A DNA stretch of 63,336 nt, filler included, from Chrysochromulina tobinii (taxonomy: Eukaryota), in assembly GCA_001275005.1 (NCBI GenBank). It is 5 parts of 5 records of this genome, joined end to end, with 100 filler letters (N's around TTAATTAATTAA, not from the genome) between each part and the next. Parts side by side here need not be neighbours in the genome. Positions count along the whole stretch, not along the records: positions 1 to 18,756 come from JWZX01000738.1; 4 more parts are not named here. One strand, given 5' to 3'. Positions 1-30,068 of the stretch are shown here, piece by piece. Position numbers and translations under genes: made by a program. Positions within the stretch are counted from its first letter, which is position 1. The number at the start of each line of letters is the position of its first letter. The notes beneath the pieces are model-generated. The model did no database searches, was not told where the DNA came from, and saw only the letters and a program-made list of their open reading frames with translations.

Positions 1-1075
1 AGCAGGGACCGGGTTGTCGCGCTCACCAGGCTGCTTGTGTAGCTCTGATGAACAGCAATTCAAGTCAAACACGCGACCAAGTTTACGGCACTGTTACTGC
101 CCGCTCGTTCACGCCATCCTCGGACAAACAACACGTAAAGTTCAACACGAGTGGGCGCGTGTTTAGGCCTCCTGCCCTCATCGCTCGCTGCGGGGCACTT
201 TTTGGACCTAGGGCGACCTTCCCTAATGCATCTTGAGAGAGGGTCAGTTGAATCGACACACAAGGTACCGACCAGCCACTACCACACGAAACACTGCCAC
301 GCAGTGGTCGCGTCGGCATTGCATGCTCAGCTGGGCCTGTCTAGCCAGCTCGTCCTGGTGCTGGGAGCCCTCATTCACAATTGCTCATTCACAGGCACTG
401 AACGGAACACAACCACACCTGCGGTGAGCTTGAGCTCAGCTTCACAGTTGGGTCTGGATCGGTTGGGATCAATATTGCCTGACAAATACATGGTGATGGT
501 CCGCTGAAAGCGAAAGTTTGCGAAAGCCCGCCCCGCCCCCGGATTTGCGGGCCGATACCGTACACTGATGTCCGCGTGGGGCCTTGCAACCGTGCTTTTC
601 CGGACGTTTGGGCGAGGCCAAGGGTAATCCATCGCCCCGGTAGGGTCGAAGACGTCCGAACGGTCGATATCTGAACGATCTATTATGATCACTGATGCGA
701 CTCACTCACACCACACACGCACGAATCAGCAATCACGGTCCACACGCGATAATATACTTTCGTTTCGGGAATCCCATATCTGGTGGACCGGACGGCGGAC
801 GAATACTTACCGGTCTATGTTCATTTCACGGTTTTCGTCCGCCCGTCCCACCTAAGCATGCTAAAGACCAACACGTCCTGGGGAATCTCCCCAGGACCTT
901 TCTCCCCGCTCACACGCCCCCCCAAAGCCTCAGAAATCCCATTGTAATCAGCTCGTCCTTATATCCGTGCGCGGCCATAGGTGTAGCCTGTTTCACAAGA
1001 AGTCAGAGCTCGCACCCTGCTCCTCTCCACGTGGGCGCAGATGTCGCAGGGTGACGGGCCATTTGCCGCATGCCT

Positions 1076-1740
1076 TCAGTAGGTCCACCACGGTTTCGTG
1101 TACTTGGCCTTTGGTTTCAGCAGCTCCGACGGCAGCTGCAGCTTCTGGACAATCTCATCGGGGATAGGGCTCTTGCACGTCCAGCCGCGATCCCTCATGT
1201 ACTTTGTGAGGCGTCGCTCCTCGGAAGCACTCGGCAGCTGCCGGTAGAATACAAACTTTTTCGACTGGCAGTGCTTGATGGCCTTCGAGAGCGAGACGAG
1301 CTTCGAGTTGTCCACCTTCATTTTCAGCCCGCCCTTGTCAAATGCAAAGTTGCCCACGTCGCAGTCGACGCCAGGCGGCGTCTTGGGCTGCGTCTTGGGG
1401 TCGACCAGATCCATTTCGAGCTTGTGCTCCTGGAATTTGAAGCAGAGCGTGTGCGCCGCGCCCTTCGCCTTCTCCTCGACGCACTTGAGGCCGTGGCTTT
1501 CGAGCACAGTCTTGATTTTCTCCTTCTTTTTCTGCACATCGTCCACCAGCGTGTCCACGTCATTCGCTGTCTCGCCACGGATGAGCCAGTCACGCAAGAT
1601 GCCTGCGCACATGAGTTCGAGTCACAAGTGGGTGCACACAAGAGAGGCAGAGGGGTGGAGGGGGCATGTCCGACTTGCAGCATACTGACCACCGTACACG
1701 CAGCCATCTGCGTCCCAAATTGCCGTGTGCGCTATCAAGA
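1076..1740 (-). other. Pol-beta-fold nucleotidyltransferase domain (CCA/poly(A) polymerase head-like) at C-terminus of the giant protein
   Basis: After splicing: VYGGILRDWLIRGETANDVD (hGGxxRD...DxD), third acidic residue in EMDLVD, DCDVGN (resembles DFTxN), RLTKYMRDRGW. Confidence 0.8.
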
Positions 1741-4700
1741 GCAAAGCCTGGTCCTTGTTCTGCGGACTGGGCGGCTTGGTCGGTGTGCGCAGCAGCATCT
1801 GGCGCGTCTGTAGGCCGCTACTTACCCCTTGTCCGTCGGCCGCTACTTCCGCTCCGCTGACAGTCTCCGGATTCAGCATGTTCATTTTCATCGAATCGCC
1901 GCCACCGGAGCTCCATTGGAGATTCTGCTCCAGTCCGAGCGTCTCAATGAGTTTGGCTCGCACACGGCCGACCACCGTACTCTTGAGCGCTCTCGCCCGG
2001 CCCGCCATGCGGATTCGCACGCGGAAAGGACCCGCCGCACCCTTGGTATCGCCGTCCCAGCTTTTGGTCTCAGCGTTCCATCTCTCGACCCTGATCCACT
2101 GGCCTTTGCCCTCTTTGCCCTCGAGCTGTTTGCGGTTGTCGTTCTCCGCTGCCCCAAGCGACTCATCGAGCTCATTACTGAGGTCCTGCTGCAGCACCTG
2201 CTTCACTGTAATGAATTTGCCAATTTTGCCGCTCGCTTCCGGCGGGATGGGCAAGATGATATCCTCTTCGCCGAGGTGCTCGAGCCGCCGGTTGATGCGG
2301 CGCGTGATCGCGGCCTCCATCGCCGCGGGGCACGTGACGATGAGGCTGCTCCTATCCTCCTTGCCGCTAGGCGCGTGACCAAAGTTGATCAAGGCCGACG
2401 GGAACTTAAGCCGGATCGTCTCAAAGAAACCATAGTTGCCGTCCTGGAGCAAGGCGTTGTGGCCCTTTTCGCCAAGGGGCAGAGTGAAGGTGGTGCGCTT
2501 GAAGTCCCTGATCACTTTGGCCATCTTGGAAGGGTCGGGTGCGCTGTTCTCGAGCATCTGCGCGTCAATGTACGAGGCTACCTGCGCCGACGGTTGCATT
2601 TTCCCACCGTCCTGTCATCCCACACGTGGTGGCAAAGGTGGAGACATTCACGTGCGCGTCAGAGCAGTGCAGCGCAATGAGCACACGCAGAAGAAGAGGG
2701 AGAGACGGACGCACCGTTTGGATGACGCTGCCAAACAGCACGAGTTGCGAGGTGTTCGAGGCGGGCAGGGCAAGCTCGGGCTGCCAGAGCGTCGAGTTTT
2801 TGTCGAGCTTGACCTCTGCGGCGCGCTGAGCATGCGCATCCTTATCCTCCTGCTGTTTGATCTGCGCCTTAGCTTGCAAGAGCTGCGCAATGCTTGCTCG
2901 CGCAGCGGTCGTGGACTCATCGTCGCCGTCCTTGTCCTCGCTATCATCTTGTCGCCCGCGCTCCTCGACAAACGCGCGGATGCCTTGCGCTTGCTCGTGC
3001 GAGTTCTCCGAGATCCAAATGAGGCCGTGGCTGAGGTCCTGCGCCTTCTTGGGCACTGCGACCTGGTCATAGTACGCCTTGCACAAGGCAGTGAGGAGGG
3101 CCTGTTTGAGCTCCTCTGGCGGCGACGTCTTTGCGTCCTTCCAATGAAACGGGTCATCCGCGGGATCGTACCCTTTTATGCCTTGCTTACCGAGGGTGGC
3201 TATGATGTGATCGTACACGTCCTCAGCCTCACCCAAAGGCTCAAGGGGTAGGTGGTGCTCCATACACCAGTTGTACCCTCTGCCCTGCGCCTCCTCAATG
3301 AAGCCCTTGACCGTGCGCAGCAGCGTCCAATGGTCGCCCGAGCTATCCTGGAAGGGCGACGTCCTCGCCCCCGATGGCTTGCCTGCATGCCCCGGGCCAA
3401 AAAAGCCCCAGAGTGAGGAAGCCCACGAGGGCGCCGCGGGCGTCTGCACCTGCCTCACCTTGCGCTCCTTATCGGTGGCGTTGTTGGTCTGCACGATCTC
3501 GCCCTTTTCAACTCTGGCCGTGTATTGCTGGCCCCGGCTCTCGTAGCTGACGGGCTTCTGGTCCTGCAGCAGCTGGCGCAGCCTGGCGACGACGGCCGTG
3601 TCGTGGATGTGACTGAACTGCCCCGAGCCATTCTCGACCTCGAAGCCGTGAGGAGCGTGAGACGGCGCCTTGGCGGCCGCCGCTGACTGGATCGGCTTGA
3701 GCGGCAGCAGCTTGACATGGTCGCTACTTGAGAGGGCTGCCGCGAGGTAAACCCCTGCAGCGAGGCATGACAACGACTCCGGCCGTCCCGGGTACGCGCA
3801 GTGGTAGAGGAAGAGGCCGAGGCGCACGCCAAGGCCGAGGTTCAGGTTGAGGCGGCCAACCGATGTCAGGAGGTCAACCTCCCGGCCGCCGATGGTCTGC
3901 TTCTCCAGGAGGCCAAGCGTGCGCAGCCGCTGCTTTGCCAATTGAACGGCCTCCTTCGGTAGCGACTCGATCATCTCGAGCGGCGGCGGAGCCTGCTTCG
4001 TCTTCGGGTCGGGTTTCTGCGCATCCACAAGGCGAAGGACGGTCTGCTCGATGTTGGCCTCGGTGATGGCCGCCGGCGGCTCGTCTACAAACTTAGCTTC
4101 GTCGTCGGCCGAGTAGAGGCGCACGCAGATGCCCGAGGACACGCGTCCTGCGCGTCCGGTACGCTGGCGCATCGATGACTTGGTAATCGACTTCGTGATG
4201 AGCTCCTGCATGTTCGTATGGTGGTTGAAGCGCGCGCGTCGCTCGAGGCCGGTGTCGATGACGTAGCGCACGTTATCGACGGTGATGCCCGTCTCGGCGT
4301 AGTTGGTCGTGAAGACGATGACGCGATCCTCGCGCGGGTTGAGGACCGCGTCTCGCTCCGCCGAGGTGAGCTTGCCGTGGAACGGGTGAATACCGACGAG
4401 GATGCTCTTTCTCTTGCTCTTGCTCTTGCCTCCACCCCAGCCACCACCACCACGCTCAACCGCCGCACCCGCCACTTTGTGGTCGGCGTCTGCGTCAACG
4501 TCGAGGTGAAAGGAGAAGCCCTTGCCGGGGCGGTCAAAGGTGGTGGCGCTCGGGTCAAAGGGGTCGGAGAACCGGCTGCGACAGAAGCTGAGTGCGCGAT
4601 TGATGTCGCCCTCCCCCGGCATGAAGACGAGCACGTTGCCGTCGGCCGAGCTCTGCAGCAGCTCGACAGCCTGCTCCAGCGCCACCTGGCAAAGCACCTT

Positions 4701-7700
4701 GCCCACGCCTGCGGAGCCGAGCTGGCGCGTCTTATCGTGCAGCGACGCGTCTGCGCTGCCGGCCGCCGCGCCCGTCATCATCGAGATGTCGCAACGTTGC
4801 ACGAAGACAGGGTACGTCTTGCCGGTGAGCTCCACTACCTCTGGTAGCGGCTTATCGGGCCCCTCGCGCAAAAAGTTGCGGAAAACCTCTTTCGAGCTGC
4901 CGATGGTTGCCGAGGTGATGATCACGCGCACATCCGTCGCCGCGACGAGCCGCTTGATGAGAGCGAGGCTCATGTCGATCTCCGCTGAGCGCTCGTGCGC
5001 TTCGTCGAGGATGACGGCCGCGTAGCCGACCGACTCCAGGGCCGCGGCCGCCGACGGATCGGCCGGCAGGTCCCCATCGGCATCTTGTTGATCTCCAGCC
5101 GGCGCCGAAGTGCGCGCAAGCTTCCTTGCAAACCGCTGGGGGTCCTTAGCAAGTTGAACGAAGAGGCCATGAGTCATGAAGCGGATTCGTGTCTCGCTCG
5201 AGGCCTTCTCCTCACCTCGGCCCACTGTGTAGCCTACCTCTCGGCCGGCGAGGGTGCCGCGCTCTTCGGCGACTCGATCGCAGAGGGATGACGCGTTCAC
5301 GCGGCGCGGCTGCAGCACAGCGACCTGCCGCGTCTCGTTGGGGTCCAGCACGTGGTCGAGCACATACTGCGGCAGCTGCGTCGATTTTCCCGAGCCCGTT
5401 GGTGCAGTGACAATCAGCACCTGATGCTGCTTGAGCTTTTTGATCAACTGCGCACACAGGTGGTGGAGCAGATGAGCTGGCAATCACAGCACAGTGAGTT
5501 GGCAATCAGCACAATGAGCTGCCATGGAGAGACAGTGAGCTGGCAGTCGATTGGCAGGTAAGGTGCCGCGCCTCACCTCCTCCTTGGCCGCATAGACGGG
5601 AAGACCAGCGTCGAATTGGCGCTTCTCGCGCTCAAACCTGTTGCGAAGATCCTCGTGAGCTGCATCCTCCGATGAACCACTCAGCTCCTTGTACGTGTGC
5701 TCGAATTCGCGCAGGCGCGCGGTGTAGTAGTTGACCGCCTTCCGGCCGTCGTCATACGCTGCCTTGGCGAACGCGTCCTCTTCCTTCTTGATCTGCTCTC
5801 TCAACTCCTGTGCCACCTTGGCCGCCTTCGCCGCTGCCTCCCGCTCGGCTGCACCCGGGTCGACGGCTTGTCCGGTATCCGTACCGAAGTCGACAATGTG
5901 TGTTGGCACGACTTGCTTCGTGTGTTGCCACACTAGAACAGATCCGGCAGGAGGGTTGCTGGCGTTGCCGCCGAGGTTCTGCAAGCATGCCGGCGAGAAG
6001 GCGACAGGGTTGACCAAGCCGTTCATGACGAGGATCGAGCCGCTAGTTCTTGCATATGCGTTCGGCGTGCTCATGTTTCCGTACACGCTGTACACGCCGC
6101 GGCCCCACGCAAGGCCGTTCACACTACCAAAGATCTTCTCATCGAAGCCGTTCAGCGCGATCGAAGTCGAACGCCATACGTCGGGTGTCCCATGAAAGAC
6201 GTCCCCGAGCTCGCGTTGCAGCGCACCCTTGGCATGCAGCGCGCCCTTCTCCTTTTCGTACTCGGCCTGCCGCACGCCCACCTTACACCGGCGAATCGAC
6301 GTGATCACGCGCCCCTGAGGGACCAGCGCCGTCAGCCGCCTGTACTCGTGGTCCGACGGGGGCAGCGGCATGATCGGCGGCGGTGGTGGCGGTGGCGGCG
6401 CAGCCTTCTTGAGCGTCCACTCGCTGCCAAACTTTGCCTGAGGCCATGCCTGCTGATCCAGCTGGCTCAGCCTGGAGCACTTGTTCAGCTCCGCCTGGAT
6501 GGTAGCGCCGAGGTCTTCGGTGATCTGAACCTGCTGCACGTAGCCAGAGACGTGCGGCCGGCGACACGCGTAGCACACGAGACGCATGGGGGCGTAGTAC
6601 TCTCAGCGGACGAGAGAAGCGCAGGGATCGAGGGAATTGACAATGTGGAGGCACTCAGGAGAGTGTCGGTTGGCTAGGCACTCAGGAGAGTGTCGATTGG
6701 CGAGCGCACCGCGCCGTTGAGCACGCTCTGCACCGCTTGCTGCACGAGCGGCTCCTTGACCATCTTGGCCAGAAAGCCCGAGATGCGCTCTCGTGGGTGG
6801 CGGAACTCGCGGTAGGCACCCTGCTCGGTGGTAGGCATCGTCGGGTTTCCACCGCCCTTGTCGACTGCGGCGACGAGGGCGGCCCATGAGACCCAAGTCA
6901 GGTAGGCGGCCTCGGCGCCGTGCGGCTTGAAGTGCATCGAGTTGTAGTGCTTCGCCACGTGCGCAAACGCGAGCCCTCCCTCCTTAGGACGCGCAACGTA
7001 GAGGACATACTTGCCTTGACGGCCCGCGAGGTAGATCTGGCGCGCGGGCGGTTTGGAGAAGAGAGCCCTGAGGGAGCCCTTGTCCAACTTGAAGCCCGTC
7101 TCCTCGCAGAACTCGCGGCATGCCACGTCGAGCGGCAATTCGCGCGAGTGGTCTCGCTTGCCGCCGAGTGGTTTGAGGCCCTCGCCATATTCCATACCGA
7201 GGAGTACTTCCGGCTCACCACCATGGCCGCGGCGCAGCGTGAGTGCGCCGGCTGAGCTGAAGCCGCCCTGCTCCTTTGGCTGCAGCTGAGCAGGACGCAG
7301 CTCCTTGGGCGCCGTGGCGTCGTAGCTCTCGCCATCGTCACCACGGGGTATTCCGCCGCTACTGCCGCCACCGTCGCCACCCGCCGCTGCGCGCCCAGGG
7401 TACCATCTTGGAGCGGCTGTTGGAGGATAGGAAGGCATCGGATCCGCACCACCATCGGGTGGGCCTTCAAGCGGAGTGGTCACCTGGAAGTCGCACGAGT
7501 TGAGGCGTCCCGGTCGGTGAGTCACACGATGCTGGCAGTAGCTCAGCGGCATAGCGCATATGCAGGCACTCTTGCCGCAGCGTGCGGGCAGTACGCGCGT
7601 GCGGGCGGGCGGTACGGGCGGTATTACAATGCCAAAGACGCCCTCCCTCTGCACCCCCATGACCGCGGCCATGCCGGAGCCAAAGATTCGCTGGCCAGCG

Positions 7701-8559
7701 CGCAGATTCCAGTTGCCTGCGTTCGCACCCCACACATGGTAGTTCAAGGAGCACGCGTCCTCGCCGACACGGCCGAAGACCACCCGGTCGGGGAACATGT
7801 CACGCAGGTTGTAGATGGATTCGTCAAGTGCATCGATGAAGCGCTGGTACTGCGCGTGCGTGAAGCCTTTGCTCTGCGCCGAGGGGTGGCAGCGCAAGCG
7901 GTGTGAGGTGTATATGAAAGGGCAGTAAGATATGGTGGCGCAGGCACAGCGGTCACCAGCCACTGATTTATGGCGAGGCCCTTGCCCAGGCGTGGCTCAC
8001 GGCCGTCGTCACTTGGAATGGTCGCCTTGGCGTCTTGCTTTCTTAAGAGGATGCCGACCAGCTCACCGATGCGCTCGCGGACGTGGGCAATGTAAACCTC
8101 GACGGAGTGTTCTTCGATTGCAGGTGCAGCCGGAGCATGCATGGCATCCGGGCTGCCATAAATTTCCCCACGCTGACCGCGATGACTATCTGGGGCGTCT
8201 TTCTCTGCTTCAGACTTTGGGGCGGAATTCGTGCGGGTTGCGGATGGCGGGCCGCTGCCGCCGTTGGGTCTTCGTTGCTTAATCTGCTTCTTGATTTCCA
8301 TGGAGTGGCCTCGGGGAATGCCCTCTATTTGGAGCTGTTCGTGCATCTCCTGAAGTTCATCGTCATCGTAGTTCAGCAGTATTTCCAAACTGCTGAAGCC
8401 AGACCGCCGCATGATTGCCGCGTAGGTTGAAGCGTTCTCAACCACATGCGGATGCGCCGATTCTGTAAGGAATCCGTCGAGCGTTTCGTCGGGCGCGGAG
8501 CACGCGGAGGACGGCCTAAAGGCGCCGGGCGCGTTGAATACGACATGCGGTGGCGGCAT
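1076..8559 (-). CDS. Giant 7-exon multidomain protein (~2,250 aa): SAM - macro-like? - Nudix - PARP catalytic - DEAH-box RNA helicase (WWE-like insert) - KH-like - nucleotidyltransferase
   Basis: Exons 8559-7957, 7873-7628, 7483-6710, 6533-5577, 5447-2715, 2611-1690, 1602-1076 join in frame via GT-AG introns (7874-7956, 7484-7627, 6534-6709, 5448-5576, 2612-2714, 1603-1689). Two junctions rebuild conserved motifs: LPVYAAKEE|LIKKLKQHQVLIVTAPTGSGKSTQLPQY (DEAH N-terminus) and GCVYGG|ILRDW...NDVD (NTase signature). The Nudix-PARP join (acceptor 6534 or 6531) is the least constrained. Confidence 0.8.
2715..5610 (-). other. DEAH/RHA RNA helicase (RecA1, RecA2, HA2, OB-like) of the giant protein
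   Basis: Motifs APTGSGKSTQLPQY, QPRRVNA, VGY, FMTHG, ILDEAHER, TSAT, LVFMPG, TNYAETGITVDNVRYVIDTG, QRTGRAGR, GDHWTLL. Confidence 0.97.
5886..6370 (-). other. PARP-family ADP-ribosyltransferase catalytic domain of the giant protein
   Basis: Ordered motifs: EYRRL...ITSIRR...EYE; VFHGT (6186-6197); SIALNGFD; AWGRGVYS; NAYA; ILVM; VLVW...QVVPTHIVDF. Confidence 0.85.
6750..7260 (-). other. Nudix hydrolase domain of the giant protein
   Basis: SAGALTLRR...EVLLGMEYGEGLKPLGGKRDHSRELPLDVACREFCEETG, a Nudix box (G..x..E-x7-REUxEExG) with catalytic glutamates intact, ~7096-7166. Confidence 0.9.
8275..8490 (-). other. SAM-like domain at N-terminus of the giant protein
   Basis: LDGFLTESAHPHVVENASTYAAIMRRSGFSSLEILLNYDDDELQEMHEQLQIEGIPRGHSMEIKKQI fits the SAM pattern (fL..l.L..Y...f...gf.sl..L......L..l..Gi..GH..kI). 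Confidence 0.65.
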
Positions 8560-8831
8560 TTCTCGTCGAGGTCGTGCTCTTCGCGAGCGCGGCGCACAAA
8601 ACCCGAGCGATGTGGACTCGCTACTGCCGCGATACCCGCCAATGTGTGAATGCGTGTGTGGGTGAATGCTAACACGTTCACGTTCATGCTCACTCGGCAA
8701 GGATGCCTTCTTTGTTCCGCTCGTTAATTAAAAGGCGCCGAAACGCGTGTTTCCCCACAGGGGGAGAGGTCCCTGGAGCCGATGGCTGCCGCGCGCGCTC
8801 GGCTTCTATTGCCCGTGCGATCGACTGTAAG
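8560..8831. promoter_or_regulatory. Probable bidirectional promoter between the two multidomain genes
   Basis: 272 bp between divergent ATGs at 8559(-) and 8832(+), with an AT-rich patch GTTAATTAAAA near 8723. Inferred from geometry only. Confidence 0.5.
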
Positions 8832-11354
8832 ATGCCCCAACCCAATCTTCTGAAGTATAAGCAAAGAAAAATGGAGCAGGAACTGCTCGCACGCGTGCTA
8901 CTTGCGCAAGATGACACTATGAGCGGATACGCCACGGCTCTGCGCGAGATACGCGCCGGCCACAAGCAGACGTGTTGGATCTGGTGGATATGGCCCACAC
9001 TGGCAGGTGTGCGCGAGACCAGCAAACCAGAGTTTTACGTGCCGGACGCAGAGGCTGCCTTGAAGTGGATTCGACATCCGAAGCTTGGCCCTCGCTTTGT
9101 CGATATCACGCGCCAAGCGGTGGACCACCTTGACGCTGGCGTGAGTCCATTACGGCTGTTCGGCTGGCAAGCCGACGTGGATAAGTTTCACGAGAGCGTG
9201 ACACTCTTCGGTGAGGTTACCAGGTGCAGCTACCCCGATCAAATTCGGCTTGAAGTTGTGTCGCTGTGTAATCGTGCGCTGAAGGCGCTGCAGCTACCAC
9301 CCCACCAGAAGACGCTCGAGGTGCTGCAACGGACGGGCGAGTCCTTCAGGCCGCAGCTCGACCCCCACTCGTTCGATCGCTCCATGTCGAATTCTCAATT
9401 GGCGTCAACACCTCCTCCTACCGAGTTGGCCGTCTTCCTCGCCGAGCTCGGCCTCGCCGCGCACACGGCGGTGATGCGCGCCGAAGGTTTCGATAGCATT
9501 GCCGCCCTCGGCACGATGGACAGTGACGATGCCACCGAGATGCGCTCGGCGCTCGCCGCCCGCGGGGTGCCTGGAGTCGACGTCGACCGCATTCTCGGCG
9601 CGGCAGTAGCCTGGGTGCACACCCCCCAAGCCGAGAATGTGCCGAGAATGCGCCCGGTGCTCCAAGCGGCCGGCAGCGGAGCCGTGACTGGAACGCCTGT
9701 GCAGCCGCAGCCACCGCCCATGTCCCAGGCCGCCTCCGTGATAGCTGTGGCGAGGGTCGCGGACGATTCTCGTCTCCTCTCGCAGCAGCCTCACCCGACA
9801 CGTGGCGCTGGTGGTGCGCCGGCTCTAGAGGTTGCAGCGGCCTTCGACGGTAGCACGCGTGCTGCAGGTGAGGCGAGTGGCGGAGGAGGTTCAATGAGGT
9901 CCCACACAGGGCCCCCTGCACAGGCATTCCAGCCACCGCAGGCGCAGGTCGCGGCCGCCAGGACCCCCGCCACGGTACCAAGGTTCGCGACGACCACAGT
10001 TCGACTGTGGGATAACGACGCGGACGTGGCCCAGCAGGCTGACAATTGCCTGCGGAGGATGAACGAGGCCACACTGGCGGATCCGGCAACGGCCGAGAGC
10101 CTCAAGCCTCTGTGCACCGTGGACGCACCCGTCCGAGATGGTGAGGCGATTCGTGGCTGGTCGTGCGTACGGATGGCGAGTGTGGCGCTGCCCGTGCCCT
10201 TAGCGCCACGCCTCCTCGCGCTCGATGTAGAGATGATAGAGAGGCGTGCCGACGGCGTGCGGCTGCCGGTGAGCGCCGCCCTCATCTGCTACGACCTTTC
10301 GCCACGGCAGCCGCAGCGCGTGCTCTTTTCTGGCCTTGTGGACCCGTCGGACTTTGATCGCGAGTGGCTGAGCGGCCCCATGGCTTACGACTACAAGGAG
10401 CGCTGGGTCGGACTCGACTACATGGCGCTGCGTGCGGCGCGTGAGCGCGGCGAGATGACGCCGGTGCGCGACCTCCAGCGCCTCGTACAAAAGCACATGC
10501 ACAGCGCCACCTATCTCGTCGGCCACTCCCTCAGTGGTGACCTCAAGGTGCTTCGCTTACACGGCCCCGAGCTTGAAGCGCGCGTCGTCGATACGCAAGC
10601 GCTGTACCCGCTGCCAGCGGGAGTCGGCCACGCGCGTCTCAAGGCCCTTGTGGAGGACATGCTACCGGCCGAGGCGTGGCGGCACTTCCAGGCGGTAGGC
10701 GCGGCGCACCCACCTGATCAGGACGCCAATGCGGCACTCGAGCTCGTGACGCGTGAGCTCGAGCTTCTCCTCGAGCAGCCTCAGCGCCGTATCGGCATGT
10801 GGAGCAACAGCGACGGTAGCGGCGGCAATCGCGGTGGCTGCTCGAAGCGTCCAATAACGGCCAACGATTCGCGGGCGATTCGAACGTTGCTAGTGGCCGA
10901 GTCAGACGTCGGACGTCTGATTGGGAAAAAGGGCTCAAAGATCGAGCAGCTTCGCGCCGACAGCGGTGCGCAACTCGAGCTTCTCTCACAAGCCGAGAGC
11001 CACACGCGGGGCGGGAGCACAGACGATACAAAACGAGTGCTGCGCATCGAGGCGCCTGACTGGGCCACGCTTGACCGTGCGTGTGCGCTCATCCATGCGT
11101 CGGTGCTGGTGCCTCCCGTTGTTGCCGGCATGGAGCATCTGACTCAGACCCCAGCCGACGACGTTGCCGCGGTGGTCCAGGGTTCGGCGCGGTATGAGGA
11201 GGATCGCGTGAGCACATCGGTGCGATCCTGTGGCCCCTCCCGAGCGAAGACGCTGTAGCTCCGGCTCAGGTCAGTGGCCCCGATGAGCATGGGCGGCATG
11301 GGCGCACCGATGGGCGGTGCTGCGCCGATGGGCGGTTTTCCGATGGGCAAGTAA
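8832..11354 (+). CDS. DUF1810 - SAM - DEDDh (REX/ISG20-like) 3'-5' exonuclease - KH domain protein
   Basis: DUF1810: GYATALREIRAGHKQTCWIWWIWPTLAG...HPKLGPRF...LFG...DVDKFHESVTLF (~8923-9300). SAM: LAVFLAELGLAAHTAVMRAEGFDSIAAL (~9421-9610). DEDDh: LALDVEMI / LVGHSLSGDLKVL / VVDT / HPPDQDANAALEL (~10200-10760). KH: VGRLIGKKGSKIEQLRADSGA (~10880-11100). A likely 78-nt intron (11192-11269, GTATGA..CTCAG) removes the TAG and adds a Met/Gly-rich tail ending at TAA 11354. Confidence 0.85.
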
Positions 11355-12026
11355 GCGCGCACGCAAACGGATCTTTGCTTTACGGTCCGTGGCAAATGAA
11401 GTGCCGGCCACTAATACTGCACAGTTTCTCGGTCATGGGCGCTCATGCAACTACCGTACGCTACACGCAGTTTTCTCGGGGGGGTCGGTCCCGGTCCTGC
11501 ATTGTGATTGTCACCTCAGAGGGCCGGCGGGCGTCAGCCACTGTGTTGAAACACCATAGGGTAACTACCTGTGTAGTGAAACCCTCCCCCTAGGTCAAAA
11601 TCTTGCGCCGGGCAGCGGTACGGTACGCAATGATAGAGCGAACACTCGACAGGTACCTACACACAGTTTTAACGCTCGCTTCACGAGTGCGGATCGCGCA
11701 AAACCCCGAGCGAGCCCTGGCAGGAAATCAGTTTCGTCGCGGTCCCCCGAAGCGCTCACCTCACCGGCATACTCAACGGACCGGACGGGACGGCTCCGCA
11801 CCCCTCGGTCAACACAAGAATCACAAGTACGAAGTAGAAGTACTGCTCGCTCTCTCGTGTCACTCCATTATGCTAGTGAGGTTAATGGGAGAGACAAATG
11901 CACAGCGTTCTGCACCCGCTGGCGCGGCGGCCATTGGTAGTCATCGGGTACGCCCGCCATGTCGCCCTTTGCGCCGCCACGGCATCGAGCAACAGGTCGC
12001 CGCGGCGCAGCCCAACGGCCACCAGG

Positions 12027-12899
12027 CTATGGGGCACGGGCGACCGTCTCGCCATCCACTTCGTCTAGACTTGGTTTTGCCTTCTTGTCGCCCCCGCCCG
12101 TGTCCCACTTGGATTTTCGCTTCACGACGGACGCGTCGGTCGCCGCGGCTGGCGGCGCTGCCGTAGAGGTGCCGATGCCGGCGGCGCCGCTCGGCGCCGC
12201 CCTTGGCTGCTGCTGATGCTGCTGCTCGAGGAGGCCCGAGGAGTGAAATTGCACACGCTCGCCCGGCTTGCGGCTCTGTCGCTCCTCGTACTCGCGCCGC
12301 GCGCGCTCGAGTTCCTCATAGAACTCGTGGGGCTCCACGGCCGTCGGGTCGTAAATCTCGCTCGGGTAGTTGCTGCCATTCTCAACAACGTCCATGAACG
12401 CGACCAACTTCTCGAGCAGGTCGGGGTTGCGAAAGCGCTTGGAATTGCGAATGTAGTCATTGACGCGATTGCCCTCCGTGGAGGACTTCACAAAGCCAAG
12501 AAACTTGGCCATGACCTTTGGGTTGCACTCGCCGGGCGGCGAGGGCGGCACCTGGAAGGACGGACGCACGTCCTCCTTTGGCGCAGGAGCGTCGGGCGTG
12601 CTGGAGGTGGTGCCATCGGCGTCCGAGGCGACGGCGAGCTTGGCGCTGCGCTTCACGATGGACACCTGAACGCTGCCCAGCCGCCGCGTGCCGCTCTTGA
12701 CGATGTCATCGTCGTCCAAAGAGACGCCCAGGTCCCTCGCAGGCATGGGCGGTTTGTCACCATTGCGGTAATCTACAATGGAGAGTAGGCCCGACGCGGG
12801 CGCCGGTGCGGCCGCGTTGCTGGTGCCGGCGGACGCCGGGGCCTCGTCGCCCGCGCTCTCCATCGGCTCGGGTGTCTCGGAGTACGCGACGAGGGACAT
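12027..12899 (-). CDS. SAP30BP: SAP30-binding protein (HCNGP-like)
   Basis: PPSPPGECNPK...IRNSKRFRNPDLLEKLVAFMDVVENGSNYPSEIYDP...FYEEL and C-terminal KRKSKWD; N-terminal MSLVAYS. Confidence 0.9.
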   Translation of the reverse strand: MSLVAYSETPEPMESAGDEAPASAGTSNAAAPAPASGLLSIVDYRNGDKPPMPARDLGVSLDDDDIVKSGTRRLGSVQVSIVKRSAKLAVASDADGTTSSTPDAPAPKEDVRPSFQVPPSPPGECNPKVMAKFLGFVKSSTEGNRVNDYIRNSKRFRNPDLLEKLVAFMDVVENGSNYPSEIYDPTAVEPHEFYEELERARREYEERQSRKPGERVQFHSSGLLEQQHQQQPRAAPSGAAGIGTSTAAPPAAATDASVVKRKSKWDTGGGDKKAKPSLDEVDGETVARAP

Positions 12900-13041
12900 G
12901 GCGTTCACAGCTGCTTCACAGTGGAGAGAATTTTCAGACTAACTTCGGCGCGGCAAAAGAATAGGAATTCACGACACCACGGGACCTGTCGTCTTGCCGT
13001 GATGGCAATTTAATTAACGCGAAGGTGAACGTGAGGAATTC

Positions 13042-13890
13042 ATGTCCGAAGTCACTCTCGACTTCATCGCTCTCCTCCGCCGACTCGTCGCGGACGTGCC
13101 GTCTCGCGGCGCCACCCTCAACGCGGCGTTGCAGCAACTCGCCTCCCAGGAGCTGCGTGACCTCGAGCCGGACGCGTCGCTGCTCGAGGCGCTGCTCTCC
13201 GTTCCCACCACCGCATGGGACTCCTTCTCTGCCGACGACTTGTACAAGTGGCACACGTTGCTGACGGGTGTGCTGCAGATCCCCGAGGTCGTCAGCGCCG
13301 CACCTGCGGCCGCCGCGTACGCCACCGACGCGCTCATCGACGGCGCCTTCGCGCGAGCTGCCCTGCCGCCCGCCGAGGAGACAGCTCAGGCGATGACTCC
13401 AGGCAGCTCGCTGCCTGGCTGCGTGAGCATGGTGAGCACGGGCGCTTCGAGCGCGAGCACGCGCACCGCGGCCCGGGTGGGAGGCCCGGGAGGCGGCGCC
13501 GCCGCCGGGAGTGCGCGTGCGCGACCGGCTGGGCCACGCGGCCGACCGTCAGCCCCCATCAGTGATGCGACACCACAGGCGAAGCAGGCGGCCGAGCTTG
13601 GGGCGGTGCGTGCGCTGCTGCACTGGCTGTACCGGAGCGGCGACGTGGTCGTAAAGTTCGCGGATGTTGACGATTTTTTCTCCGTGGCAACCACTAGTCA
13701 GTTCACTAGTCCCCCAGTTGGCCCTCTCGAACTCAAGTCGGCGTCGGCCTTCGTGCTTGGCCGCAACTTCCTTGTACCATTCGACGTGATTCTCACTGAC
13801 CCGCTCGCACGAGTCGAGAGGGACCTTGGCGCGGTCTCTGCGAAGCTTGAAGAGCTCATAGCCATGCAAGCACCTAAAACAGATGCTTAA
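13042..13890 (+). CDS. Hypothetical protein (282 aa)
   Basis: ATG-initiated ORF with coding-like composition, divergent from SAP30BP; no recognisable motif. Confidence 0.6.
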   Translation: MSEVTLDFIALLRRLVADVPSRGATLNAALQQLASQELRDLEPDASLLEALLSVPTTAWDSFSADDLYKWHTLLTGVLQIPEVVSAAPAAAAYATDALIDGAFARAALPPAEETAQAMTPGSSLPGCVSMVSTGASSASTRTAARVGGPGGGAAAGSARARPAGPRGRPSAPISDATPQAKQAAELGAVRALLHWLYRSGDVVVKFADVDDFFSVATTSQFTSPPVGPLELKSASAFVLGRNFLVPFDVILTDPLARVERDLGAVSAKLEELIAMQAPKTDA

Positions 13891-28404: not shown

Positions 28405-29930
28405 CTATGCGCGGGTGACTTGAGTGTGCTCGCTGAAGGCCGATGGGTCGACGACGGTCGCTGATGGGATCGTGATCGACGCGAGAGAGGTGCAGTCGTA
28501 AAAGGCGTCGTAACCAATCTGCATCACCGACTCGGGGATCGTGATCGACGCGAGCAAGGTGCAGCCGAGAAAGGCTTGCTCACCTATCTGCGTCACCGAC
28601 GCGGGGAGCGTGATCGATGCGAGCGAGGTGCAGCCGAGAAAGGCTAGCTCACCAATCTGCGTCACCGACACGGGGAGCGTGATCGACGCGAGCGAGGTGC
28701 AGCCGTGAAAGGCGTACCCACCAATTTGTGTCACTGACTCGGGGATCGTGATCGACGCGAGCGAGGTGCAGCCCTGAAAGGCAGCCACACCAATCTGCGT
28801 CACCGACGCGGGGAGCGTGATCGACGCGAGCGAGCGGCAGCCCCAAAAGGCCCACGTGCCAATCTGCGTCACCGACGAGGGGAGCGTGATCGACGCGAGC
28901 GAGGTGCAGCCGTAAAAGGCGCTCTCACCAATCTGCGTCACCGACGAGGGGAGCGTGATCGACGCGAGCGAGGCGCAGCCGCGAAAGGCGTCCTTACCAA
29001 TCTGCGTCACCGACGCGGGGAGGTTCGCGACCGACTTGAGCGACTCGCAGTCTCCCATCTTGAGCTCTCGCAGCGCCGTCAGCCTCGCCACAGACGCCGG
29101 CAGCGCCTCCCCCTTCCACTTCTTCCCGCTCAGATTCAGCCCGCGCACGCGCGCCCCTCCTCCTTGTCCGCCGTGAGCGCCCTGCCGAGCCCGTCCCGGC
29201 CGCCCTCCACCCCCGCCGCCCACTCGGGATCCTCCAGGATCCACGCGTCCTCAGACGCCCCGATGAGCTCCACGTCCGTCGCCCCGATGAGCTCCAGAGC
29301 CGTAAAGGTGACTTGAGTGTGCTTGTCGAAGGCGCATGGGTGGACGAGGTTCGCCGATGGGATCGTGATCGACGAAAGCGAGGTGCAGACCTTAAAGGCG
29401 TCCGGACCAATCTGCGTCACCGACTCGGGGATCGTGATCGATGCGAGCGAGGTGCAGCCGTAAAAGGCGCGCTCACCAATCTCCGTCACCGACGCGGGGA
29501 GCGTGATCAACGAAAGCGAGGTGCAGTCGTAAAAGGCATGCCCACCAATTTGCGTCACCGACTCGGGGAGCGTGATCGACGCGAGCGAGGTGCAGCCCTG
29601 AAAGGCAGCCACACCAATCTGCGTCACCGACGCGGGGAGCGTGATCGACGCGAGCGAGGTGCAGCCGAGAAAGGATTGCCCACCAATCTGCGTCACCGAC
29701 GCAGGGAGAGTGATCGACGCGAGCGAGCGGCAGCCGAGAAAGGCTTGCCCACCAATCTGCGCCACCGTCGCGGGGAGCGTGATCGTCGTCAAAGATTTGT
29801 AACTTAACGAGCTACCCTCCCAATTGGCGGGACCGTGCACAAACAGGACCTGACACAGTTCGACGAGTGGATTCGGCGGGGGCACTGAGGGACAAAAGCA
29901 CCGCAACATGAACTTGCATGCATGCAACAA
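28405..29930 (-). CDS. BspA-type (TpLRR/LRR_5) leucine-rich repeat protein; two repeat blocks split by a frameshift at ~29154-29157; probably 5'-partial
   Basis: 23-aa repeats LASITLPASVTQIGxxAFxGCTS in ORFs 29136-29930 and 28405-29244. One extra G in the GGGG run would join ...ADKEEG to ARVRGLNLSGK...LPASVARLTALREL. Confidence 0.85.
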
Positions 29931-30068
29931 ATAGACTTTTCGGCCAACGTTCTCGCAGGCGCGTGTGAGAGGTGCAGCGTGTGCAAGGGGCTGGGAGAGC
30001 CCCTTGGCGTGTGTGAGGAAGGCGAGTACATCATTTTGAGCGCGGATATGTGCTCACGCGCCTACACC

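Follow-up and report, generated by a model that had tools for sequence, protein, structure and literature searches.

A single-chain Nudix, ADP-ribosyltransferase, helicase, and nucleotidyltransferase protein of Chrysochromulina tobinii and distant protists, plausibly a defensive RNA-processing enzyme

PARP10, PARP11, and PARP15 act on phosphorylated RNA ends, a modification that macrodomains undo (PMC6582358), ADP-ribose-capped RNA goes untranslated in human cells and resists XRN1 (PMC9458441), and RNA ADP-ribosylation is known in toxin conflicts (PMC11833690). Here, we describe two neighboring genes, A and B, in a window of 63,336 nucleotides (five joined parts) from the genome of Chrysochromulina tobinii (assembly GCA_001275005.1), and in particular gene A, whose product carries a Nudix hydrolase, a predicted mono-ADP-ribosyltransferase (ART), a DEAH helicase, and a nucleotidyltransferase (NTase) on one chain. 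With a probability of roughly 45%, we read A as a single-chain RNA-end-reworking and probably defensive RNA-silencing enzyme, and B as a lineage-restricted exonuclease that probably shares its promoter without being a required subunit joined through SAM domains.

The fold of the A ART and its glutamate-less triad are those of PARP14, PARP12, and PARP10 and, as in these proteins, Macro and KH domains share the chain in many relatives of A. Gene A nevertheless departs from them in that a DEAH helicase follows its ART, the chain gains Nudix and NTase domains, neither an RRM nor a confirmed WWE precedes the ART, and the C. tobinii copy has no detectable Macro. With ZAP (PARP13), A shares an ART-fold domain and a proposed action on foreign RNA, but it has no CCCH zinc finger (Pfam scans across all exons gave no zinc-finger family), keeps the His and Tyr of the nicotinamide adenine dinucleotide (NAD) site, and brings its own helicase. 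The DEAH11/DEAH12 helicases (helicase-KH-RBR) supply the next-best helicase matches and share the DEAH-HA2-OB-KH core; they sit, however, on separate branches of the helicase tree, and Pfam found no IBR/RBR in A or in 20/20 scanned members of its family. In rotifer helicase-PARP-WWE proteins a PARP is likewise joined to a helicase, but at the C-terminus and with no match to Nudix, Macro, or NTase; P0086, P0112, P0115, and P0119 (one from Rotaria) form a separate clade of this type that combines a DEAH helicase with two WWE domains and a PARP at the C-terminus, which we regard as an independent helicase-PARP fusion.

The NTase of A has the GG..RD, DxD, and D motifs of Gad2, of giant-virus NTases, and of the head of class II CCA enzymes; unlike the Gad2 and giant-virus proteins, it is the C-terminal domain of a spliced cellular gene. 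Gad2, which inhibits Gabija, is described as a protein predicted to be a nucleotidyltransferase (10.1101/2023.05.01.538930). For gene B the comparison is with SDN1, REXO, and ISG20: all five DEDDh residues are present and SDN1 is the best PDB match, whereas the DEDDh domain of B is fused to DUF1810, SAM, and KH domains and occurs in 7 clusters only (in a search among proteins of 444-1414 amino acids, aa). No description of the gene A layout was found in the literature searched, most subscription papers lying outside that search; while each part is of a known kind, their union on one chain and the clade that has it appear to be undescribed.

The family was delimited with the helicase. With the helicase exon as query against longer proteins, 21 stood out at 244-1265 bits, all other listed matches (the best 120 of 241) scoring <=183 bits, and the Nudix-ART region of one family member used as query added two more, giving a family of A and 23 members. 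Named members include the oomycetes Phytophthora boehmeriae, P. nicotianae, Pythium oligandrum, and Aphanomyces stellatus, the chrysophytes Ochromonas danica and Pedospumella encystans, Kipferlia bialata, and two unclassified eukaryotes (Eukaryota sp. GEM-RC1 and TZLM3-RCL). The order of domains is [Macro]-Nudix-mono-ADP-ribosyltransferase-DEAH helicase-KH-nucleotidyltransferase: 22/23 members align with A from the Nudix through the helicase (P0013, the exception, begins after the Nudix), and the NTase is reached in 21/23, P0020 and P0179 stopping earlier. A Macro domain precedes the Nudix in 12/23 members (11/20 of those scanned with Pfam, P0005 by precomputed annotation, and 0/2 of the added members), which puts writer and eraser on one chain. 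In a tree of the helicase core (55 rows: A, the 23 members, and 31 outsiders from the 99 other listed matches; quick search, midpoint root), A and the 23 members make up one side of a branch with a Shimodaira-Hasegawa-like approximate likelihood ratio (SH-aLRT) support of 99.

The alignment shows N-terminal modules exchanged among family members. A by-eye likeness to SAM in the N-terminal helical domains of non-haptophyte members failed (hhalign 1.2%; Pfam 0/6 segments). DUF1810 and DEDDh were found by Pfam in no scanned member of the A family, and the gene B protein matched none of the 120 listed helicase matches at E 0.01. The sequence-only reading of this DNA had spread a chemistry of ADP-ribose writer and eraser, helicase, and tailing enzyme over two genes; the chemistry is real, but it lies almost wholly in A and is carried on one polypeptide in distant protists without B domains, and the two-gene reading is therefore only partly supported. 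The A family is a widespread and apparently undescribed enzyme of protists, likely RNA-processing and plausibly with a part in defense.

Pfam PARP alone gives the ART E 0.17. Its model (predicted local distance difference test, pLDDT, 87.5) matches PARP14 (E 4.5e-9) and PARP12 (E 5e-9) in Foldseek, with template modeling (TM) scores by target of 0.65-0.70. In the 22-row alignment (A and the first 21 members) H655 is present in 22/22 rows, Y689 in 22/22, and Y701 in 21/22; the third triad column holds V, I, or F (V740 in A) and Glu in 0/22 rows, the V740 column being placed by its spacing to the following Gln, a spacing that we take to be that of PARP1 and PARP14. Since no row has the Glu, the ART would be of the mono type and not a polymerase; the H-Y-V/I/F triad and a modeled fold nearest PARP14, PARP12, and PARP10 point to a predicted mono-ART. 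Of the PARP proposed from sequence alone, then, the fold stands and the polymerase Glu does not, Val being found in its place. The helices of the linker that follows are residues 226-284 and 290-308 of the ART-region model.

The Nudix domain reaches 21.4 bits in Pfam against a cut-off of 21.1, and its box (G..E..REUxEExG type) is intact in 20/22 aligned rows. In front of it, where many family members have Macro, A has a domain (aa 150-290) that is conserved in P0185, P0189, and P0001; it has no match in Pfam, NCBIfam, or PHROGs, its hhalign probability against the family's own Macro domains is 0.4% (with a very shallow query alignment), and its best Atlas score of 0.84 is a lead only, so the macro-like call made for it earlier is unconfirmed. 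Its pattern, HVWGAN..G.GMA..MG....VFGI, may resemble that of a macro-like phage family.

In the helicase, matched by Pfam as DEAD and Helicase_C (E 3e-10), K881, D1008, E1009, H1011, Q1288, and R1295 are invariant in 22/22 rows, and the family has motifs I, II (DEAH), III, and VI plus HA2/OB, as in the DEAH/RHA helicases. Other members match HA2_C, OB_NTP_bind, and KH_1 at E 1e-5 to 4e-3, while exon 6 of gene A itself has no Pfam match. A WWE-like domain had also been proposed, and this stays unconfirmed: the insert scores 13.6 bits against a Pfam cut-off of 21.1, matches no shallow home-made WWE profile (4 sequences), and occurs only in A and the P0001 cluster, 18/22 rows being empty there and two rows having 4 and 31 residues.

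The NTase keeps seven key residues in 21/22 family rows, and its model has a pLDDT of 89.5. Atlas places it with Gad2 clusters (0.97, 195/256 features), and Foldseek gives proteins of megavirus and related giant viruses as best matches (E 4e-6), with 28 matches at E <=0.001. Against solved CCA/tRNA nucleotidyltransferases Foldseek gives E 6e-3 and TM by target 0.2-0.27, and VIA gives Z 7.2, a root-mean-square deviation of 4.0, and 140 aligned residues. Among solved structures, those that rank highest belong to RNA-tailing enzymes (tRNA nucleotidyltransferases and TENT5/FAM46) and not to cGAS or OAS. Gene A ends about 160 aa past the DxD and lacks the neck, body, and tail of CCA enzymes. The Nudix, helicase, and nucleotidyltransferase named by the sequence-only reading are thus all upheld, as are the DUF1810, DEDDh, and KH domains of gene B.

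Searches for related domains in prokaryotes and viruses gave little: the NTase exon had no match to phages by tblastn (a low-sensitivity test), the 82 pattern matches to the NTase alignment in IMG/VR included zero relatives (an exact-motif test), and the ART motif pattern was found 12 times in GTDB genomes, never at a site that aligned to the family by tblastn, and 0 times in IMG/VR (again an exact-motif test). NCBIfam and PHROGs returned nothing specific.

Positions 1-13652 match a single public contig (L001) at 99.96%, and on it genes A (minus strand) and B (plus strand) are divergent, head-to-head open reading frames (ORFs) with start codons at 8559 and 8832 and 272 bp between them, just as had been read from the sequence. 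All introns of gene A (6/6, GT-AG) are spliced in RNA contigs, four of the six RNA runs that contain the stretch having been compared with it, and no such joints occur in the contigs of the DNA runs set beside them; two of the introns were seen joined again in a second comparison, and intron 3, whose acceptor is 6533 or 6530, is kept in a contig of one RNA run. Contigs cover both genes in 4/4 of the RNA runs compared, though the cover of gene B, which has no intron, may come partly from DNA. In the four runs, the RNA contigs listed end at 8579-8602 and restart at 8779-9026, while DNA contigs span the spacer, which is a weak hint of two divergent transcripts. For gene B, an alternative start at 8871 is possible, and the stop codon lies at 11256-11258; an intron extending the gene to 11354, where it had been thought to end, is ruled out by ungapped RNA contigs (three runs) that cross 11258-11572. 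The coordinates are collected in Table 1.

Table 1. Position of genes A and B, their domains, and the spacer between them in the window
Feature	Residues (aa)	Position	Strand	Basis or remark
Gene A	1-2,253	1076..8559	minus	7 exons, 2,253 aa; joints in RNA contigs, open joined frame
Gene A exons		8559-7957, 7873-7628, 7483-6710, 6533-5577, 5447-2715, 2611-1690, 1602-1076	minus	
A SAM domain	24-97	8269..8490	minus	Pfam SAM_2 E 0.045 (under cut-off), profile link to Pfam-positive SAM proteins
A conserved domain, Macro slot of many family members	150-290	7463..8112	minus	split by introns 1, 2
A Nudix hydrolase	355-530	6743..7270	minus	box GGKRDHSRELPLDVACREFCEETG; Pfam E 2.6e-4
A ADP-ribosyltransferase	595-760	5877..6374	minus	triad H655-Y689-V740; model, Foldseek
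A long helix/coiled coil, ART-helicase linker	765-850	5607..5864	minus	model helices, family alignment
A DEAH helicase core and HA2 start	851-1445	3693..5606	minus	GSGKST, DEAH, SAT, QRTGRAGR
A WWE-like insert, unconfirmed	1458-1528	3444..3656	minus	Pfam WWE E 0.089
A HA2/OB, then KH-like domains	1559-1998	1931..3353	minus	family Pfam matches, alignment
A C-terminal nucleotidyltransferase	2056-2253	1079..1759	minus	YGG..RD, DxD, third D
Spacer		8560..8831		272 bp, presumed shared promoter region
Gene B	1-808	8832..11258	plus	intronless, 808 aa; open frame, ungapped RNA contigs
B DUF1810 (Rv1873-like)		8886..9224	plus	Pfam E 1.8e-20; PDB 2jek E 1.5e-9
B SAM domain	196-261	9417..9614	plus	Pfam SAM_1 E 0.05 (under cut-off), profile search
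B DEDDh 3'-5' exonuclease, SDN1/REXO-like		10209..10766	plus	D, E, D, H, D (ALDVEM, GDL, AHPPDQDA)
B KH domain		10884..11096	plus	GKKG loop; Pfam KH_1 E 9.3e-11

In gene B, a low-complexity linker follows the SAM domain and precedes the DEDDh domain, which matches PDB 5z9x (Arabidopsis SDN1) at E 8.8e-5 and Pfam DEDDh_C at E 0.0026. The relatives of B in the 7 clusters are 50-96% identical to it, and none of the clusters is named from the distant lineages of the A family; gene B appears restricted to close relatives, as judged from one length-limited protein search.

The two genes do not change evenly. Over 418 helicase codons compared with the locus L004, 4 changes are synonymous and 0 nonsynonymous. 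The ratio of nonsynonymous to synonymous rates (dN/dS) is 0.5-1.4 for exon 1 of A, 0.39 for the Nudix, 0.45 for the ART, and 0 for the helicase (all on small counts); for gene B, three comparisons give 0.7-0.8 and a fourth, with one synonymous change, 3.35, and for its DUF1810 the ratio is about 1.05-1.1 (small counts). The A N-terminus and B change fast, and the helicase does not.

We infer the RNA substrate, the sequence of steps, the part played in defense, and what B does. The KH domains and the helicase of A would load on the target RNA and unwind it; the Nudix would strip the cap or a pyrophosphate to leave a 5'-monophosphate, on which the mono-ART would place ADP-ribose; the Macro of other family members would reverse this mark; and the C-terminal NTase would add a 3' tail. 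Gad2 and the giant-virus NTases are domains of virus-host conflict, and we favor defense because the family is patchy in range and exchanges its N-terminal modules, its NTase is of a viral type, and the A 5' part and B change fast.

Several points weigh against this reading. Mono-ARTs mostly act on proteins, the C. tobinii copy has no detectable Macro and a degenerate KH GxxG loop, its Nudix has a best PDB match (E 0.06) too weak to name a subfamily, and the fold matches of the NTase to solved structures are only middling (Z 7.2; E 6e-3). Since ADP-ribose capping shields RNA from XRN1, silencing or storing the RNA would fit as well as destroying it, and relaxed constraint explains the rates of the A 5' part and B equally well. 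Other such points speak for a real link between A and B. At all three close loci with upstream DNA (L002, L004, and L005, 94-96% DNA identity) gene A lies upstream of B, head-to-head; L003, without upstream DNA, and L006 and L007, with unrelated DUF1810 genes, were left out of this count. Among diverged haplotype proteins, 66-68% identical to B and 54-57% to the A 5' part, P0155, P0234, and P0233 probably share one 19,347-bp contig and P0124 and P0241 one 6,295-bp contig, to judge from equal record sizes. P0184 runs for 111 aa at 94-96% identity to the diverged A N-terminus and then at 81% to the B KH region (one sequence on one 1,865-bp contig, either a rearrangement or an assembly chimera). 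Finally, the chemistry of A and B fits, a 3' tail being matched with an SDN1-like 3'-5' nuclease.

The rival that survives best, though we think it unlikely, makes A a sensor-signaling protein: the helicase would detect foreign RNA, the NTase would make a nucleotide messenger or modify a protein, the ART would mark proteins, and Nudix and Macro would reset the system, RNA being trigger and not substrate. ARTs of the PARP14/PARP12 type are best known as protein modifiers, and a C-terminal NTase of about 200 aa, without the body and tail of CCA enzymes (TM by target 0.2-0.27) and nearest Gad2 and giant-virus proteins, would suit such a role. Its top solved structures are, however, the RNA-tailing enzymes, and its supply of RNA 3' ends would come from the KH, OB, and helicase domains.

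A second rival, which the sequence-only reading had put forward and which we hold to be clearly unlikely, is a complex held together by the SAM domains, with A unwinding and tagging RNA for the DEDDh nuclease of B to degrade. Both SAM calls, weak in Pfam alone, do hold in the profile search that had been suggested as a check (53 matches to a profile from the two, among them proteins passing Pfam SAM_1), and SAM_A and SAM_B are of the same subtype, with an inserted helix. The 272-bp head-to-head spacing in L002, L004, and L005, the probable adjacency in the diverged haplotype, the union of an A-type SAM with a B-type KH in P0184, and the cover of both genes in the RNA runs would all be expected of partners. 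Yet the two SAM domains are 27% identical, with mutual scores of 13.5 and 12.4 bits, and among the 41 matches of neither A nor B type, 29/41 are nearer SAM_A than SAM_B is and 26/41 nearer SAM_B than SAM_A is (12/53 matches are of A or B type; the set was chosen by the profile of both SAMs and holds many fragments). In two DNA runs, moreover, both SAM-coding segments have diverged copies on other contigs, which makes A and B mosaics of modules reused in the genome; such paralogues were visible only through contigs of the sequencing runs compared. The SAM domains thus do not mark out this pair.

The synteny is open to a similar objection. Because the A Nudix part on the 19,347-bp record (P0233) is 93% identical, the diverged 5' haplotype may be that of a close relative, in which shared synteny is expected; the pairing proposed earlier is kept at 94-96% DNA identity and probably in the diverged haplotype, but B was not found with the distant members of the A clade (in the length-limited protein search and among the 120 listed helicase matches), and those scanned have no B domain. 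The next gene pair, of housekeeping type, is also head-to-head (HCNGP starting at 12899 and a B56-kinase at 13042, 142 bp apart), in line with the caution, already voiced, that adjacency alone is weak evidence. Gene B is probably not an obligatory partner of A, and short of binding between the SAM domains the two-gene pairing would add little.

Quite improbable, finally, is a housekeeping role for A in RNA repair or turnover (stress, ribosome, or tRNA clean-up) with B as an incidental neighbor: all catalytic residues are strongly conserved over long distances, both genes are covered in 4/4 RNA runs with no infection recorded, and PADLOC gives only generic helicase matches for A and none for B, but the patchy spread, N-terminal module exchange, and virus-type NTase would be more typical of conflict genes.

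To return to the single-chain RNA-end-reworking enzyme, its boldest extension is a long shot: A as an undescribed protist innate-immune enzyme that senses, decaps, and ADP-ribose-caps viral RNA and tails it with an NTase of the kind used in conflict by phages (Gad2) and giant viruses, with the fast-evolving, SDN1-like co-promoter nuclease B recruited in this lineage through SAM polymers and polinton-like viruses mimicking the B SAM. Antiviral defense in protists is largely open, and the A clade is a concrete candidate for it. If the preferred reading is true, RNA ADP-ribosylation, for which most evidence so far comes from human enzymes, in vitro and in cells, could be an old function with a dedicated machine, and the NTase type otherwise known from phage anti-defense and giant-virus genes would have its first cellular context.

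Some smaller observations touch the SAM domains. Diverged short copies elsewhere correspond to 8011-8100, 8164-8223, 8251-8400, and 8498-8561 on the gene A side and to 9363-9713 and 10097-10149 on the gene B side; some of these module copies occur in RNA runs too, and run X21 gave only short fragments of the stretch. P0196, a 1,657-aa protein, has at aa 210-277 a SAM 47% identical to that of B, and the rest of the protein shows 46% identity to the largest ORF (L020:7352-14062) of an AT-rich 16-kb IMG/VR contig with ATPase, lipase, and capsid-like ORFs, which we take to be polinton-like; Pfam confirmed only the lipase and a weak nucleoside triphosphatase. The contig's own ORF has no SAM, and P0186 has two B-like SAMs and no viral match. 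Viral capture of a host SAM is possible, as far as these alignments suggest.

Gene structure varies as well: P0001 is a single 2,019-aa frame where gene A has introns, and the B relatives P0123, P0124, and P0127 and L003:1571-2087 seem to have introns where B is intronless, differences among close relatives that we put down to intron gain or loss. DUF1810 sits in other fusions in L006 and L007, and the DUF1810 literature searched held only unrelated work, as judged by title and the start of the abstract.

At position 1978, all four sequencing runs of one comparison have A instead of T (Thr1983 to Ser), likely an error or an allele in the stretch. After the B stop, 11287-11354 holds a GMGAPMGG-type frame matching other transcripts, and 11530-11860 a high-copy repeat near 11570 with a depth of about 6,000 in one DNA run. 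The neighboring gene at L001:13057-16620 encodes a PP2A B56 subunit domain fused to a protein kinase. Past 13652 the stretch departs from L001 and runs into other sequence, and 28408-30053 holds BspA-type leucine-rich repeat ORFs.

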